From: an uncultured Clostridia bacterium
GTDB taxonomy: Bacteria > Bacillota > Clostridia > Christensenellales > Borkfalkiaceae
DNA length: 64,000 bases
NCBI GenBank assembly: GCA_947630245.1
Contig: CANRGR010000001.1
Span: 11,175-75,174 of the forward strand
Direction of reading: 5' to 3'
A model generated the notes under the pieces. It ran no database searches. It saw only the letters and a program-made list of their open reading frames with translations, and was not told the DNA's origin. Positions within the stretch are counted from its first letter, which is position 1; each line of letters begins with the position of its first letter. Position numbers and translations under genes: made by a program. Positions 8,330 through 56,600 of this stretch are shown here, piece by piece.

Positions 8330-8764
8330 TTTGCGCTTTCCCGTCATTCCGCCATTCTTTCCTGTCATTCCGAGGGCACGCAGTGCCCGCCCCGCCCGCA
8401 TTCTTTTTCACGAAGGGCGGCACGAGGAGCGCCAGCGACGAAGTAGTGAATCCCCTCGTTCAAAGCGAACTTCGTATTGGGGGATACACTCCTCCCTCGC
8501 TCCGCTCGGTCGTCGGTATGACAGCGGGGTGCGGACTGCGCTCTTCCTGTCATTCCCCTGTTCTTTCCTGTCATTCCGAACCCCCGAAGGGGGTGAGAGA
8601 ATCCCCTTGTTCAAAACGGACTTCGTATTAGGGGATACACTCGCTACGCTCGGTATGACAGCGGGGCGCGGACTGCGCTCTTCCCTGTCATTCCCCTGTT
8701 CTTTCCTGTCATTCCGAACCCCCGAAGGGGGTGAGAGAATCCCCTCGGTCGATGTTCTTCCCTG
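8330..8764. repeat. intergenic repeat array R1 (about three tandem composite units)
   Basis: Repeated modules: GTCATTCCGA-[hairpin core]-GAGAATCCCC (8364-8455, 8570-8606, 8708-8744), ...ACTTCGTATnnGGGGATACACTC, and GCTCGGT(CGTCGG)TATGACAGCGGGGnGCGGACTGCG. The same modules recur at five other loci. Confidence 0.9.
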
Positions 8765-9040
8765 TCATTCAAGAGAAAGGTCGTTCCATGCAGGATTCCC
8801 CTGCGCTATGAGCTTTACTTTATTGTTATGAGAAAGTTTTTTCACAACTTTCTCGCGTGTAATCGCGTCCTCAATTTGCGTGTACGATTCAAAATAAACC
8901 AACTTCTTTATTTGGTATCTCTTGGTGAACCCGTCGTTCACACCGTTTTTATGCTCGTAAACTCGGCGATTGAGATCGTTTGTGACTCCCGTGTACAACA
9001 CAGTATTGTGTTGGTTTGTCATAATGTAAACGTAATACAT
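8765..9040 (-). CDS. GIY-YIG nuclease family protein (UPF0213/COG2827-like)
   Basis: MYYVYIMTNQHNTVLYTGVTNDLNRRVYEHK... carries the GIY (YVYIM), YTG(V) and R-x3-EH motifs. Clearly more AT-rich than its flanks and embedded between repeat arrays. Confidence 0.85.
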   Translation of the reverse strand: MYYVYIMTNQHNTVLYTGVTNDLNRRVYEHKNGVNDGFTKRYQIKKLVYFESYTQIEDAITREKVVKKLSHNNKVKLIAQGNPAWNDLSLE

Positions 9041-9070: not shown

Positions 9071-9279
9071 GCCGTCATTCCTCTGTTCTTCCCTGTCATT
9101 CCCCTGTTCTTTCCTGTCATTCCGAACCCCCGAAGGGGGTGAGAGAATCCCCTTGTTCAAAGCGAACTTCGTATCAGGGGATACACTCCTCCCTCGCTCC
9201 GCTCGGTCGTCGGTATGACAGTGGTGTGCGGAACTCGCTCCGCTCGGTCGTCGGTATGACAGTGGTGCGCGGTATGACA
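9071..9279. repeat. intergenic repeat array R2
   Basis: Same modules as R1: GTCATTCC variants 9074-9120, full hairpin module 9113-9152, GGGGATACACTC, and three TATGACA units. Confidence 0.85.
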
Positions 9280-9974: not shown

Positions 9975-10427
9975 CCCCTCGCTACGCTCGGTATGACGGC
10001 GGGGGCTCCCGCTTGGCGCCCCTCGCAGGGGAGCTCCGCCCGCAGGGCGGTGAGGGGTTTCTGAAACCCTTTCGGCTCACTCCGTTCGCCACTTCCCCTA
10101 TAAGGGGCAGCAAGGGTGCGGACTGCGTATCAGGGGATACACTCCTCCCTCGCTCCGCTCGGTCGTCGGTATGACAACGGGGTGCGGACTGCGCTTTCCT
10201 GTCATTCCGAACCCCCGAAGGGGGTGAGAGAATCCCCTTGTTCAAAGCGGACTTCGTATCAGGGGATACACTCGCTACGCTCGGTATGACAGTGGGGTGC
10301 GGACTTCGTATCAGGGGATACACTCCTCCCTCGCTTCGCTCGGTCGTCGGTATGACAGTGGGGCGCGGACTGCGTATCAGGGGATACACTCGGGCTCCGC
10401 CCTCGGTATGACAACGCGGGTGCGAGG
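9975..10427. repeat. intergenic repeat array R3
   Basis: Contains the about 110-bp module GGCTCCCGCTTGGCGCCCCTCGCAGGGGAGCTCCGCCCGCAGGGCGGTGAGGGGTTTCTGAAACCC...CCCCTATAAGGGGCAGCAAG (10005-10114), one GTCATTCCGA hairpin module (10198-10237) and four GGGGATACACTC/TATGACA units. Confidence 0.9.
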
Positions 10428-32540: not shown

Positions 32541-33115
32541 GTACGACAGCGGAGCGAACTGCGTATGAGGGGATACACTCGACTCCGCGCTTTGCGCTCC
32601 GCTCGGTATGACAACGGAGAGAGGGCGCGTGTCGGTATGACAGCGAAGGCTCTCACTTGGCGCCCCTCGGGGTCCCCGCAAAAAGACGTAGTATTTTTGC
32701 GGGGTGGTATAGGGGAGCTCCGCCCGTAGGGCGGTGAGGGGTTTCTGAAACCCTTTTGAAACCCTTTCGGCTCACTCCGTTCGCCACTCTCTCATGTGGG
32801 TAGAACCCCGCATTCGGTCACCGTTCGCGCGGCAAATGCGCTCACTCATGTCGCATTGCGCCAACAGTTATCAACTGTTGGCAGGATGCAATGCTCCACC
32901 CTTTCAGGGGCAGCAAGGGGGAGGGAGCAAAGAATTTCGTGAACATCTCTGCGCGGAGCAGGGTTCCCCTGCGGTAGCGCCCACAATTTGCGCGATACTT
33001 CGCGCTTGTTGTCCGATGAAACGAAGAAGAGGTTCGGCAAGTTAAGGCGCGAGAGCACTTTTCCTCGAACGATTCTTTTCGACGCAAGCGAAGCGAGCAA
33101 GCAAAGAATCGTTCG
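32541..33115. repeat. intergenic repeat array R4
   Basis: Holds GGGGATACACTC, TATGACA units, the 110-bp module interrupted by an extra hairpin module (32649-32790), and CCCACAATTTGCGCGATACTTCGCGCTTGTTGTCCGATGAAACGAAG...GTTAAGGCGCGAGAGCAC, which is shared with R5 and R6. Confidence 0.9.
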
Positions 33116-42620: not shown

Positions 42621-43338
42621 GAGTTCCTCCTCTTGGCGCCCCTCGGGGTCTCCGCAAAAAGACGTAGTATTTTTGTGGGGTGGTTGTTTTTCTTGTCATT
42701 CCGAGGGAGCCGTAGGCGACTGAGAGAATCCCCTTCTCCAAAGCGGACTTCGTATCGGGGGATACACTCGGGCTCCGCCCTCGGTATGACAGAAAAGGCT
42801 CTCGCTTGGCGCCCCTCGCAGGGGAGATGTCACGAGCTTGCGAGTGACAGAGGGGTTTCTGAAATCCTTTCCCTCTCACTCCGTTCGAGGACTTCCCCTA
42901 TAAGGGGCAGCAAGGCGCGGCGCGGGATTCTCCCGCGCCGCGCCATTTTCAAATCACGTCATGTTGAGCGCAGTCGAAACATCGCCTTGATTTTTTAAGA
43001 CCTTGCACCTTGGGCGGCAGGGACCGCCGCAAAGCGGTCGCGCCCGCCAGCGCTCCTGTCACGAGACGCTCACAGCGCACCGCGCTGTTGAGCAGAATGC
43101 CTCGCTCCACCTCGACAAGTTCAGAGTGACATAATCAGAACGCATTCTTGTTCTCCTCTGTCATTTCGAGGGAGCCGTAGGCGACTGAGAGAATCCCCTT
43201 CTCCAAAGCGGACTGCGTATCAGGGGATACACTCGCTCCGCTCGGTATGACAGCTAAAAATCTTATGCGCGTTGGAAAACCACGCTTTTCCATAAGCGCC
43301 CACAATTTGCCGCATACTTGCGGCTTGTTGTTTGCGCA
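42621..43338. repeat. intergenic repeat array R5
   Basis: Two GTCATT(C/T)CGA-GGGAGCCGTAGGCGACT-GAGAGAATCCCC modules (42695-42733 and about 43159-43198), GGGGATACACTC/TATGACA units, a 110-bp module variant (42797-42914), GTCATGTTGAGCGCAGTCGAAACATC, and the CCCACAATTTGCCGCATACTTGCGGCTTGTTGT module (about 43300-43335). Confidence 0.9.
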
Positions 43339-48979: not shown

Positions 48980-49030
48980 AATTTCCTCCTTCCCGCGCGT
49001 TGAAACACCACGCTTCCGGTGCTTTCCCAC

Positions 49031-49620
49031 TCTTTTTGTCATTCCGAACCCCGAAGGGGGGGGGTGAATCCCTAAGTCACTGTTTTTCCTGTCATTCCGA
49101 ACCCCGAAGGGGTGCCCCGCCCGCATTCTTTTTCACGAAGGGCGGCACGAGCACGCAGTGCGAAGTAGTGAATCTCCTCATTCAATACGGACTGCGTATC
49201 GGGGGATACACTCGGGCTACGCCCTCGGTATGACAGCGAAGGCTCTCGCTTGGCGCCCCTCGGGGTCCCCGCAAAAAGACGTAGTATTTTTGTGGGGTGG
49301 TATAGGGGAGCTCCGCCCGCAGGGCGGTGAGGGGTTTCTGAAACCCTTTCGGCTCACTCCGTTCGCCACTTTCCCTTTCAGGGACAGCAAGCGTTCCCAC
49401 AAATTCCCCGCGAGCAGAACCACGCTTCTGCGTAGCGGGACACAATTTGCCGCATACCTGCGGCTTGTTGTCCGATGAAACGAACGAGAGGACAAACAAG
49501 TTAAGGCGCGGAAGCACGTTTCTTCACGGAAATTCTTTACGAAGCGCGGCGGCGCGCCGCTTGCGGCAAGCCGCAAGCGAGCAAAGAATTTCGTGAAAAA
49601 GCAAGGAATTTCGTGAAAAA
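49031..49620. repeat. intergenic repeat array R6
   Basis: Holds GTCATTCCGAACCCCGAAGGGG modules, the long-core variant shared with R1 (…CGCATTCTTTTTCACGAAGGGCGGCACGAG…GTAGTGAATC), GGGGATACACTC/TATGACA units, the interrupted 110-bp module (49241-49391), and the ACAATTTGCCGCATACCTGCGGCTTGTTGTCCGATGAAACGAA...GTTAAGGCGCGGAAGCAC module. Confidence 0.9.
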
Positions 49621-49626
49621 CAAATT

Positions 49627-50649
49627 TTATTCCTCTCCCCCGGCGACGTCGGCAACCGACGCGCCTTTGGCGGCGACGCGGATCTTCTCTTCGATCTCCT
49701 GCGAGAGTTCGGGATTGTCTTTGAGGAACTGGCGCATTTTCTCTCTTCCGTTGGCGACCTTGTTGTCGTTATAGCTGAACCATGCGCCGCTCTTCTTAAT
49801 GATGTCGTATTGGATTCCGAGGTCGATGAGGCACCCCTCCTGCGAGACACCCTCGCCGAACATGATGTCGAATTCCGCCTGACGGAAGGGAGGCGCGAGC
49901 TTGTTTTTGACCACCTTGGCGCGGGTACGGTTGCCCGACGCGCCATCGGCGTCTTTGAGGGTGTCGATCTTCCTCACGTCGATGCGCACGGACGCATAGA
50001 ATTTGAGCGCCTTGCCGCCGGGAGTGACTTCGGGATTGCCGAACATCACGCCCACTTTTTCGCGGAGCTGGTTGATAAAGACGACGCACGTCTTGCTCTT
50101 GTTGACGATTGCGGTAAGTTTCCGAAGCGCCGGCGACATGAGCCGCGCTTGAAGTCCCACATGGGAATCCCCCATGTCCCCCTCGATCTCCGCCTTGGGC
50201 GTGAGCGCGGCGACGGAGTCCACGACGATGATGTCCACCGCGGAGGAACGGACAAGGCTGTCCACAATGTCGAGCGCCTGTTCGCCCGTGTCGGGCTGGG
50301 AGACGTAAAGTTCGTCGAGATTGACCCCGAGATGCTTGGCATACACGGGATCGAGCGCGTGTTCCGCGTCGATAAACGCCGCGATTCCGCCCGCCTTCTG
50401 TGCCTGTGCGACCGCGTGGAGCGCGACCGTCGTCTTGCCCGAGGACTCGGGGCCGTAGATCTCGATCATTCTGCCGCGGGGAAGTCCTCCGACGCCGAGC
50501 GCGAGATCGAGCGCGAGGCACCCCGTCGGAATGACGTCGATGTCCGTGTTCCCCGCCTCGTCGCCGAGTTTCATGATCGCCCCCTTGCCGTACTGCTTTT
50601 CGATCTGTGCGAGCACGGCGTCGAGCGCTTTGAGCTTGTCTTCGTTCAT
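49627..50649 (-). CDS. recA: recombinase RecA
   Basis: [16 protein letters not shown] (Walker A); 340 aa with full-length RecA signatures. Confidence 0.97.
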
Positions 50650-53695: not shown

Positions 53696-56600
53696 TCAAT
53701 CGAGAGGACCGTATTTGCTCTCGAACTCTTCCTTCGTGAGGAGCACCGCCCTTGCGCGCGCCTTCCCGTCGAAGGGGGAGACATACCCCATCGTCTCCAT
53801 CCATTCCATGATCTTGCCCGCGTGGTTGTACCCCACCGAGCATCTGCGCTGAATGAGCGAGATGGACGCCGATCCGAGCTTGACGACCATGCCGAGCGCG
53901 CGGATATATTCGGGCGTGATCGCGCCGCCGCCATCCTCGTCGTCATCGTCGTAATTCTCCTCCGCCTCCTCGTTGCGGTTGATGTAATCGGTGACGTCGG
54001 GATCGAAATACGCCTCGTTGTGCGTCTTGATCTCCTCGACGATCGCCTGAACTTCCTCCGACGATATGAACGCGCACTGCACGCGGGAACAGTAGAACAT
54101 TCCCTCCGACTTATAGAGCATATCGCCGTTGCCGAGCAGTTTCTCCGCGCCCGATTCGTCGAGAATGGTACGGGAGTCCACTTCCTGAATGACGCGGAAC
54201 GCCATACGGGTGGGCAAATTCCCCTTGATGACGCCCGTGATGACGTCCACCGAGGGACGCTGGGTTGCGATGATGAGATGGATTCCCGCGGCGCGCGCCT
54301 TCTGCGCGATGCGCTGGATGCGCTCCTCGATGTCCTTCTTGGCGACGGACATGAGATCGGCGAGCTCGTCCACGACGATGACGATCTTGGGAAGTTTCTG
54401 ATCGCCTTCCGAGAGCGTGTCGTTATATTCGTCGAGATTGCGCACGACCGTGCCCGAGCGCGTCGTCTGCTCGAAGAGATCGAACCTGCGCTCCATCTCC
54501 TTGATCGCCCAGTTAAGCGCCATCACCGCCTTCTGTGCGTCCGCGACGATCTCGTTGATCATGAGATGAGGAAGTCCGTCGTAAACGGTGAATTCCACCT
54601 TCTTGGGGTCGATGAGAATGAGCCTCAAATCCTCGGGGGAATATTTGCAGATCAGGCTGATGAGAATCGCGTTCAGACAGACCGATTTCCCCGAGCCCGT
54701 CGCGCCTGCGATGAGCATATGCTTCATCTTGGTGATGTTGCCGCACACATTTCTGCCCTCGATGTCCTTCCCGATGGCAAACATGAGCGCGTCCCGCGTG
54801 CCGCCGAGATATTCGTTCGCCTGCATGACGGAGCGGAGCCCGACCGTCGCGCGCACGGAATTGGGCACTTCGATGGAGATGAGCCCGGATTCGTTGTTGG
54901 CATACATATTCACGCCGTCGCGGGCATGCAGCCGCATGGCGATCTCCCCGCCCCTGCGGGTGACCGTGTTCAGGGAAATGTTGTGCGGAATATCGAGATC
55001 GTAGCGCGTCACGGAAGGACCCGTCGTAACCCGCATGATCTCCGCGTCCACGCGGAATCCCGCAAGCGTCTCGATGATGATCTCCGAATTCCGCTCGACC
55101 TCCTCGGGCGGGACGGCGATCGTATCGTCGTACTGGCGGAACAGCGCCATCGAAGGCTGCTGGTAGGGACGGTAGACATGTCTCTCGGGACGGGGCGCCG
55201 CTTTGGACTTTTTCTCCGCAGGGCGCGGCGCGCTCTCCTCCGGGGGAGCGTCGTCATCAAAGAGATTCGCATCCGATCTCCGCAATCTGCCGATCGCACG
55301 GCTGTCCCCGAGATCTTCCTCCTCCGCGCTCTCTCTTCCGCGCGGCTCTTCAAACGTCTCTCTTCCGCGCGGTTCCTCGAACGATTCACTCTCCTGCGGC
55401 TCTTCGAAGGTCTCCCTTCCCCGCGGTTCCTCGAAGGTCTCCCTTCCCCGCGGTTCCTCGAACGTATTCTTTCTGCGCGGCGTATAGTCGTCCAATCCGC
55501 GGAGACCGCCGTATTCGGGGGGATCGTCGATCTTGTCGAGGAAATTCTTTTCTTCCCCCCTTCCGAACTCTCTTCCGAAGGAGGGATCAATCCTCGTGCG
55601 CTCCGCCCTCGGGCGGGAGAAGAGACTGCGGAACTCATCGTGCAGTTCATCCTTTTTCTCTGCGGGCTCCGCGGAGACGGGAGGATGCTCGCTCTTGACG
55701 GGCTCGGGTTCGGGGCTGACGGGCGCGCGTTTCACCCGCTCGGGCTCCTCCGTCCGCACATCTTCCGCGGCGGACGGTTCGTCGAAAATATTCGGCGCGG
55801 ACGTGAACTCCTCCTCAAAGGGAACGTCTTTGGCATAGCGGTCATGCGGCTCCTCCGGGGGCGTGATCGGCGCGCGATAGGAGGGCTTTGCGGGATAGTT
55901 GATATCCTCCGCCCGCACGGTATAGCCGTCGGGACGGGAGTCCGGTCTCTGTTCCACGATCTTGCGCGGCATCGGCTCGCGGGTGAGTTCCGCCTGCGCG
56001 CCGTAACGGTCGGTGTAGCTCGGCGCCGACCCGCCGCTCTGCCGGGGCTCCGTCCGCTTTTCGAAACTTGCGGGAATGCCGTAATCGGTTCTGCGCGCGG
56101 GAGAATCGCTCGGTTCGATGCTGCTCCTGCGCACACGGGAATTGAAATAGGAATCCTGGTTGTAAATCAAATTGCGCTTGAAATCCTGCGCGGGAGACGA
56201 ATACAGAATATCCATTCCGGAATACCCGCCGAACAATCCCGCGTCGTCCGCGGGCGCGTTGTACTGCGGCTCCGACGGCTGTTCGTACCGCGGTTGTTCA
56301 TATCTCGGCTGTTCATACCGCGGCTGTTCGTATTGAGGCTGTTCGTATTGAGGCTGTTCATAGCGCGGTTGTTCATATTGAGGCTGTTCGCGCACGGGCG
56401 CCTCTGCAGGGGGGGCGGTGCGGTAACGGACGGTACGGGGCGTCGGTGCCGCGTCTGCCTCGGAGACGTTCTTGCCGCCCGTTTTCTTCTCCTTTGCGGG
56501 TTTCTCCGCGCGCGGACCGCGGCGGGAGAACGCCAACGCAAAAAACGGTTTCAAGAGGAAGAATGCGCAGACCGCGAGGAGCAGGGAGAACAGAACGTAC

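Follow-up and report, generated by a model that had tools for sequence, protein, structure and literature searches.

The stretch of DNA analysed here, hereafter the window, covers 64,000 nt of the genome of an uncultured Clostridia bacterium (G000:C1:11175-75174) and contains copies of an intergenic repeat of ~105 bp, which we name E2. In some of these copies, the loop of the first hairpin is occupied by a second hairpin, a 42-nt insert named E4, so that one module lies nested at a fixed point within another. E4 is hairpin 1 of P, a two-hairpin element that is undescribed and widespread in the genus. P normally terminates an integrative element or a gene-less mini-element and there directly adjoins the displaced portion of a tRNA gene. 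How did a piece of P come to sit within E2? The reading to which we lean, with about equal confidence and doubt, is that a P hairpin was captured once into E2, followed by co-amplification and short-patch exchange among E2 subtypes. Our survey comprised the whole assembly (1.70 Mb in 99 contigs, 57% GC, 94% complete) and 130 sampled genomes of the genus, a large one of at least 130 species; related genomes in this set are not independent samples. Because metagenome-assembled genomes (MAGs) are fragmented, with many contigs stopping within repeats, all copy counts are lower bounds, and because our pattern searches were exact, divergent junctions may be missed.

E2 has hairpin-bearing inverted ends, its left end (CTTGGCGCCCCTcgcAGGGGAG) matching the reverse complement of its right end (CTTGCTGCCCCTtatAGGGGAAG). 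It reads CTTG(G/T)CGCCCCT, a loop of 2-4 nt, AGGGGAG, hairpin 2, GAGGGGTT, at least one (TCTGAAACCC) unit, TTTCGGCTCACTCCGTTCGCCAC and TTCCCCTATAAGGGGCAGCAAG. Two plus-strand copies in the window have this empty form, both with the loop CGCA: the one at 10012..10114 combines a CCGCCC-type hairpin 2 with a right end (CTTCCCCTATAAGGGGCAGCAAG) that is the inverted repeat of the left end, and the one at 42805..42914 carries an alternative hairpin 2, TGTCACGAGCTTGCGAGTGACA. Two others, likewise on the plus strand, are filled. At 32656..32787, the left arm CTTGGCGCCCCT is followed by E4 (32670..32711, plus strand; GGGTCCCCGCAAAAAGACGTAGTATTTTTGCGGGGTGGTATA) in the hairpin-1 loop, a CCGCCC-type hairpin 2 and a doubled GAAACCC unit, with the usual right-end hairpin absent; the copy at 49249..49391 holds E4 at 49263..49304 (plus strand) and is complete through the right-end hairpin TTTCCCTTTCAGGGACAGCAAG. 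Genome-wide, the length of the hairpin-1 loop is bimodal, with 24 copies at 2-4 nt, 10 complete copies at 40-44 nt and no intermediates. Two additional filled copies are C2:8474 and C88:4846 on other contigs, and truncated combinations of E2 and E4 occur twice, at C2:58348 and at 42632..42684 (plus strand), where the next module (TGTCATTCCGAGG...) cuts after the hairpin and leaves the left part of E2 with 39 nt of E4.

The original prediction of a nested insertion with discrete empty and filled states was thus borne out: all sequences it quoted are present, and the insert does sit within the hairpin-1 loop of the filled copies. What it had described as a solo partial copy of the insert at 42640-42685, by contrast, is the truncated composite just mentioned and not an independent one. 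True independent copies lie on contigs C25 and C23 of this genome and in other species, where E4 occurs alone and in at least two other repeat frameworks, as expected of a separate module. With discrete states and an insert that also stands by itself, neither the continuum of indels nor the lack of independent copies that would have spoken against nesting was found. The proposed swap of the second hairpin at 42797-42914 is real as well, as at least four alternative hairpins occur in the same frame and filled copies exist with three of them. By type of hairpin 2, filled and empty copies in this genome number 7-8 and 8 for CCGCCC, 1 and 9 for GTCACGAGC, 3 and 2 for GTCGAGGC, and 0 and 3 for a short GTCAC form; the sole filled copy of the GTCACGAGC type also bears the left arm typical for that subtype. 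In a related genome (G129; e.g., C24:18875-19050 and C11:38-213), the first two E2 hairpins form head-to-tail arrays with a 51-nt unit and up to four copies.

E4 alone is predicted to form an 11-bp stem with the loop GACGTAGTA (as single-stranded DNA; -13.8 kcal/mol, z = -6.3), in agreement with the hairpin first read from its sequence. Its 31-nt core has three matches in the window at up to 3 mismatches, compared with 0.00 expected from 100 shuffles. The copy at 49263..49304 contains a G.T wobble in its stem (TTTTTGTGGGG), and among 50 copies we count 19 distinct variants with the stem pairing kept by compensatory changes (for example, CCCCACAAAAA/TTTTTGTGGGG and TTCTCAAAAAA/TTTTTTGAGAA) and the loop G(A/G)CGNAG(T/C)(A/G) retained in 18 of the 19. 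The G.T pairs are confined to the orientation drawn, and the drawn strand is therefore the one whose fold matters. The only terminal inverted repeats of E4 are the arms of its own stem, and the T tract of an intrinsic terminator is absent after the stem on both strands (E4 is followed by GGTGGTATAGGGG, its complement by GACCCCGAGG). Two copies elsewhere (G075:C41:11532-11594 and L008, ~1506-1530) have the 9-nt loop reverse-complemented on an unchanged stem (TACTTTGTC instead of GACAAAGTA), which is a hairpin-mediated loop flip.

The junction of E4 with E2 reads CCCCTCG, then GGGTCCCC...GGTGGTAT, then AGGGGAG, and the empty form CCCCTCGCAGGGGAG; relative to the latter, one base is replaced. All filled copies except one share this single junction, and in each of three species it runs from CCCCTCG and GGGTCCCC on the left to GGTGGTnT and AGGGGAG on the right. 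More generally, 1-3 loop bases are replaced, not cleanly split, where E4 is inserted, and target-site duplications were found neither at its junctions in E2 nor in the two other frameworks, A and C, described below.

Folding of this kind invites a functional explanation, according to which E2 would be a structured RNA or a set of hairpins stabilizing mRNA 3' ends, and E4 a tolerated helix extension, kept in loops since it would break the fold elsewhere. Consistent with this, an empty E2 as a single strand forms a chain of small hairpins (z = -3.0), of which hairpin 1 gains E4 as an extended tip in the filled form (z = -4.2); hairpins vary in sequence yet stay paired, the G.T pairs of E4 fit one strand only, and E2 arrays lie mainly at gene 3' ends or between convergent genes. 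However, Rfam 15 gave no hit at gathering score in the window and none at E<=1 in the array at 49000-49650, and the orientation of E2 relative to neighbouring genes is mixed, being antisense to them within the window. Dozens of copies, moreover, lie at sites that are not orthologous, and where spacers are orthologous, their content is completely replaced from one species to the next. We regard a functional RNA as a very unlikely explanation of the nesting. An outer closing stem of E2 (TGGCG/CGCCA) is not claimed here; covariation support for it is absent among the listed subtypes.

The guest is easier to trace than its host. P measures ~107 nt and consists of AGGGCTCC, hairpin 1 (E4 or a variant of it), GGAAGAGGAG, a long and variable hairpin 2 often tipped by AGCTTTTC-GNRA-GAAAAGC, and, after that hairpin, CGACGAGG or CGACGA(G/A)G. 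An alignment of 11 sequences (A1) predicts 29 pairs, and compensatory double changes occur in 17 of these; single-stranded motifs and ends are invariant. A covariance model built from it detects full-length P in 119 of the 130 genomes, with more than 1100 matches overall and at least 29 in some genomes; in the present genome, the model also scores the E2 copies filled with E4, chiefly via E4 itself. Searches of P-bearing loci against Rfam returned tRNAs and weak sub-threshold matches only, with no family match for P, and a plasmid collection searched with P gave no match.

P is frequently a neighbour of tRNA genes, one of which lies within ~300 nt at 19 of the 29 best loci (P-bearing loci are C25:21358-21917 and C23:21860-22063 in this genome, and L009, L011, L019, L025 and L075-L104). 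At eight of nine tRNA-Thr loci, the base after P is the first of the tRNA T-loop (position 54), and the 12 nt that follow contain no mismatch (for the ninth, L080, no P end was parsed), and at all nine the last 20 nt of the tRNA recur ~200 nt downstream. At tRNA-Pro loci, it is the anticodon loop that holds the junction (position 33, 37 or 38). The 'islands' so delimited measure ~120-205 nt, are essentially P alone and form tandem units; in this genome, an intact tRNA with its displaced 3' fragment as a direct repeat is seen on C25, C23 and C3. Only at L020 does P adjoin a tyrosine integrase, together with a tRNA; at L026, P is located upstream of a MobV-type relaxase whose neighbour is a large serine recombinase. 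A homologue of a small L026 open reading frame comes before P on C92, a contig of the present genome. Integrases are known to cross over within tRNA stem-loops and to regenerate the gene, which is the geometry of the P-tRNA junctions (PMC4383910). We read P as what would be the attachment-site-proximal, structured part of integrative and possibly mobilizable elements and of their gene-less derivatives. In relatives (L009 1628-1704, L076, L083, L099 and L104), the usual neighbours of P at an anticodon-loop junction are tRNA-Pro genes whose anticodon is called as AGG; bacterial tRNA-Pro does not usually have an A at position 34.

Outside E2, the core of E4 is found in this genome three times in a 205-nt tandem repeat on C25 and where C23 ends, shortly downstream of tRNA-Thr(GGT). 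In the C25 array of P, the final unit comprises E4 alone, an unrelated mosaic module cutting it off behind hairpin 1. This shows how an isolated E4 can arise beside a repeat array; the unit is a possible intermediate toward a captured E4. An exact-pattern scan of one genome per species placed E4 in 21 stretches from ~12 MAGs, and the public records in which the hairpin occurs are labelled 'uncultured Clostridia bacterium' and stem from MAGs of rabbit ('Lapin') and 'BRZ' samples. Altogether, E4 has at least four contexts: E2 hairpin 1, framework A, framework C, and P. In framework A, from G137, it occupies the loop between GGCACCCTCCC and AGGGAGGGCAAG, a hairpin that corresponds to the right-end one of E2; here too, empty copies (16, with TTACAC or TTGCAC) and filled ones (11, with a 47-nt loop) have no intermediates. 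Framework C, AAATTGTGTCGCGCAGCGGA^AAAGCGTGGTT, has many empty and few filled copies in G138 and G139. All nine of its copies in the present genome are empty, with one in the window at 43278..43308 on the minus strand (AAATTGTGGGCGCTTATGGAAAAGCGTGGTT) and a second at 49418-49448. The left flanks of E4 vary with the framework (TCG, AATA, GATA/CATA or CAA).

Within E2, E4 occupies the same junction in two further species. G075 has 82 empty and 18 filled copies, the latter with the loop GACAAAGTA or GACAACGTA and one of them with the loop flipped, and in G058, 29 copies are empty and 6 filled, the latter with a compensated stem; filled copies thus account for ~18% of E2 in these two species and for about one third here. 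None of the other 127 sampled genomes has a filled E2, including those closest by RecA (G128, G109 and G011; 94-95% identity), and no other type of insert was found in the hairpin-1 loop among the 130 genomes.

This distribution bears on the possibility that the filled form is ancestral. A P-like core (E4, GGGGAG, hairpin 2, TGAGGGG) would then have been the nucleus of E2, and deletion between the flanking GGGG runs would have removed E4 from the copies that are now empty. The P model indeed aligns filled E2 end to end, placing E2 hairpin 2 at P hairpin 2, with 72-nt matches at 43-45 bits compared to 35.6 for E4 alone, and the flanking motifs of E2 and P are alike (GRGGAG before and GAGG after hairpin 2). 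In addition, one E2 copy of this genome, C96:90, reads CCCCTCGGGGGAGC with a 2-nt loop, near the product expected from a deletion of E4 between its flanking GGGG runs, and may be an excision footprint of E4. Yet the score beyond E4 amounts to only ~8 bits, empty E2 is far wider spread than the filled form with its 3 of 130 genomes, and the empty loops are diverse (CGCA, TTCA, ATAA, TATA, CACA and CTTA) rather than one deletion product. An ancestral filled E2 therefore appears highly improbable to us.

The near-uniform junction, shared with G075 and G058, points to one old capture and a subsequent spread of the composite. Under this preferred reading, P hairpin 1 would have been placed once, in an ancestor or donor of the lineage, into the apical loop of E2 hairpin 1, replacing one or two loop bases without a target duplication. 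Template switching or short-patch conversion between hairpins, aided by the G and C runs that both share at their stem bases, could have brought this about. The composite would then have multiplied with E2 and moved between E2 subtypes by short-patch recombination, such that the later spread of E4 would have been passive, riding on E2. Single capture, capture mechanism and passive spread are all steps that we infer. Of the two mechanisms in the original prediction, templated hairpin replacement describes the pattern and is plausible as its origin, with the mechanism as such again one that we infer, while site-specific insertion in the manner of MITEs (miniature transposable elements with inverted repeats) finds no support in its strict form, given no target duplication, no partner and one shared junction. 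Nor does E4 appear to be re-copied from P, since E4 within E2 fails to follow the P of the genome it resides in: in G075, the loop in E2 is GACAAAGTA or GACAACGTA, whereas P has GACGCAGTA on a different stem. Concerted evolution of E4 in E2 with hairpin 1 of P in one genome was considered and not seen in G075.

Several observations weigh against a single capture. The first is the distribution of E4 over E2 subtypes. In G075, E4 is found at equal frequency on both E2 haplotypes (TTGGCG...GAGCT and TTGTCG...GAGAT), with nine filled copies of the GG..CT kind, eight of the TG..AT kind and one recombinant, although the arms are tightly linked (17 to 1). Together with the three hairpin-2 types of filled copies in the present genome, this calls for one or more short-patch transfers of E4 from one E2 copy to another, or else for E4 having inserted repeatedly at a single site; repeated one-site insertion or homing-like conversion would explain it more directly. 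The second is the presence of E4 in at least two other frameworks of other species, each time in or beside a hairpin loop, and of a different junction at C88:290, where the guest stem is extended to ACACCCCCGC...GCGGGGGTGT. Several hairpin loops and this aberrant junction suggest some loop-directed process. Third, a second guest is nested in a second host within the same window (see below). Lastly, we found no orthologous pair of an empty and a filled E2. The recA-nadE spacers of 30 relatives all hold repeat mosaics, and because these are of unrelated composition, an empty-site comparison is impossible there; an exact-protein look-up for orthologous loci in other strains (RecA and an MGMT-like protein) returned no record. 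In the spacers of most close species (L037-L046), the module content of the mosaics is entirely different, which indicates a very fast turnover of repeat arrays between species.

Could E4 instead be placed by an enzyme? In this scenario, a trans-acting protein would actively and site-specifically insert E4 or P into stem-loops, most likely the recombinase that places P-bearing elements in tRNA T- and anticodon loops, with repeat hairpins such as E2 hairpin 1 as secondary attachment sites, or alternatively a single-strand (HUH/Y1) transposase acting on hairpin loops. Much of the above is in keeping with it: the 3' end of P at tRNA position 54 or 33/37/38 and the duplicated tRNA 3' end ~200 nt downstream follow the known integrase geometry (PMC4383910), P occurs beside an integrase and a tRNA, or a MobV relaxase and a large serine recombinase, E4 sits in hairpin loops of three frameworks and on both E2 haplotypes, and its G.T pairs occur in one strand orientation only. 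On the other hand, 42 bp are far too small for a double-strand circle, and E2 contains only hairpin 1 of P, without the conserved 3' end that abuts the tRNA targets. The junctions are not clean, and filled copies are a minority (18-33%) with one junction in three species. Furthermore, G137 lacks Y1 despite the 11 filled copies of its framework, G008 has it in broken form only, and the integrases of this assembly are not beside repeat arrays or P copies. On balance we consider active insertion unlikely, but we keep a recombinase-driven stem-loop mechanism as a serious rival, mainly because two guests with relatives at tRNA junctions sit in two repeat hairpins.

The second of these guests is Q (~53 nt; GCCCCGCCCGC...GGCACGAG, a hairpin and CGAAGTA), and its host, E1, consists of GTCATTCCGA, an inner hairpin and G(A/T)GAATCC. 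The inner part of E1 measures 14-23 nt in 36 copies and 62-72 nt in four, three of which contain Q. Two of the three lie on the plus strand of the window, at 8364..8450 (GTCATTCCGA...GTGAATCCCC, with an inner stretch of 72 nt that is mostly Q) and at 49091..49175 (67 nt), immediately upstream of the filled E2 of the same array, and the third is at C14:5495. In a relative (G015; L011 380-670), tRNA-Ala fragments have a Q-like element directly at their T-loop junction, so that Q, like E4, joins a tRNA-loop junction elsewhere with a repeat hairpin here, which again favours active insertion. One might go further and regard P and the related Q as the folded, structure-defined recombination sites of tiny gene-less integrative elements that a trans-acting recombinase would insert into stem-loops, with tRNA T- and anticodon loops as primary sites and REP-like hairpins such as E2, E1 and others as secondary ones (REP, repetitive extragenic palindromic). 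We think this proposal rather improbable. If true, recombinase-driven accretion of miniature cassettes would build the mosaic and nested arrays of the whole genus.

An autonomous element with the termini of E4 or E2, the partner expected of a MITE-like insertion, was not found in searches for Y1, reverse transcriptase, TnpB and IS110, in an assembly that is 94% complete and fragmented, so that absence is not proven. Reverse transcriptase, TnpB and IS110 gave no match in the assembly. The single Y1 match (PF01797, on C54) is an ordinary low-GC IS200 insertion sequence (IS) with its own ends and without flanking repeats. We accordingly rejected a REP-associated tyrosine transposase (RAYT) or IS200 as the mobilizer: the lone Y1 belongs to a foreign-looking IS200, E4-rich G137 has no Y1, and G008 has only broken copies. 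Near one end of this IS200 (L001 ~1325-1345), the hairpin CCCCTAAAAGGGG is identical to one that several E2 copies carry at their right end, a short match that may be due to chance. Tyrosine (generic PF00589) and serine recombinases are present on other contigs (C31, C85, C79, C49, C21 and C24). A stand-alone, low-GC GIY-YIG gene of 91 aa (8765-9040, minus strand) is flanked by two 97%-identical copies of the left module of E1 (8679-8750 and 9087-9158), and its stop codon overlaps the GAATGACAGG repeat motif. As the flanking module is E1 rather than E2 or E4, we did not retain this gene as their partner. The two tandem arrays at 55319-55491 and 56261-56395, whose periods are 27 nt and 15 nt, have no relation to the hairpin repeats and probably encode repeats within a gene.

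Membership of E2 and E4 among MITEs or the REP/RAYT systems breaks down on defining features that we tested. On the host side, the closest known systems are mosaics of REPs and bacterial interspersed mosaic elements (BIMEs) together with nested MITEs; where the guest comes from, they are tRNA-integrating mini-islands. Like REP/BIME repeats and REPINs (PMC2817692, PMC3333891, PMC3116915), the repeats described here combine GC-rich hairpins of 30-40 nt and short motifs in intergenic mosaic arrays, and E2 with its two inverted, hairpin-bearing ends resembles a REP doublet, with arrays mostly at gene ends. Unlike in REP/RAYT systems, no REP-associated Y1 flanked by repeats was found here, the host is a Clostridia gut bacterium and not a proteobacterium, and one hairpin is nested in the loop of another. 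Our literature searches for a nested hairpin-in-hairpin REP retrieved none, and to our knowledge such nesting has not been described for REPs.

A repeat hairpin as the landing site of other mobile DNA has precedents in IS1397 and IS621/ISPpu9 (PMC1525189, PMC12288879), but those are full insertion sequences with a recombinase and defined junctions, whereas E4 is gene-less, 42 nt long, lacks a target duplication and has an untidy junction. With MITEs, including nested ones (PMC3184786), E2 and E4 have in common that they are small, non-coding and multi-copy, that E2 has terminal inverted repeats, and that one element lies within another; they differ by the missing target-site duplication and parent transposon and by the termini of E4, which are only its own stem. 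In contrast to elements of the IS200/IS605 group (palindrome-associated transposable element (PATE)-like), E4 has no constant tetra- or pentanucleotide target at its left flank, and the replication-strand bias of E2 is weak (15 copies with the C-rich strand, 9 with the G-rich one).

P resembles tRNA-integrating islands and cis-mobilizable elements (PMC4383910, PMC5704250, PMC6323972) in that an intact tRNA is followed by a displaced 3' part starting from the T- or anticodon loop, in its tandem accumulation, and in the proximity of some copies to an integrase, relaxase or serine recombinase. It differs in that the 'island' is only ~120-205 nt long, a covarying two-hairpin element with at least 29 copies in some genomes and an occurrence in 119 of 130 species. 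Conservation of structure over sequence, with compensatory double changes in 17 of 29 pairs and invariant ends, is also reminiscent of integron attC sites. Lastly, in the intervening sequences of rRNA helices and the variable arms of structured RNAs, an extra hairpin likewise replaces an apical loop and filled and unfilled forms coexist; the hosts there, however, are essential RNAs, while E2 is a dispersed repeat whose guest is shared with unrelated frameworks.

Short hairpin repeats make up several percent of many bacterial genomes, and how their arrays are built is poorly understood outside the proteobacterial REP/RAYT systems. E2 with E4 provides a clean example, from an uncultured Clostridia lineage, of a module within a module whose states are discrete and whose guest is traceable. 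That guest leads to an abundant, structurally conserved element whose location coincides exactly with the tRNA positions that integrases use. Should the link be mechanistic, it would join site-specific integration at tRNA genes to the way in which intergenic repeat arrays originate, and would provide a small recombination substrate amenable to testing; if it is not, the window would still hold a documented case of hairpin-cassette exchange between repeat families.

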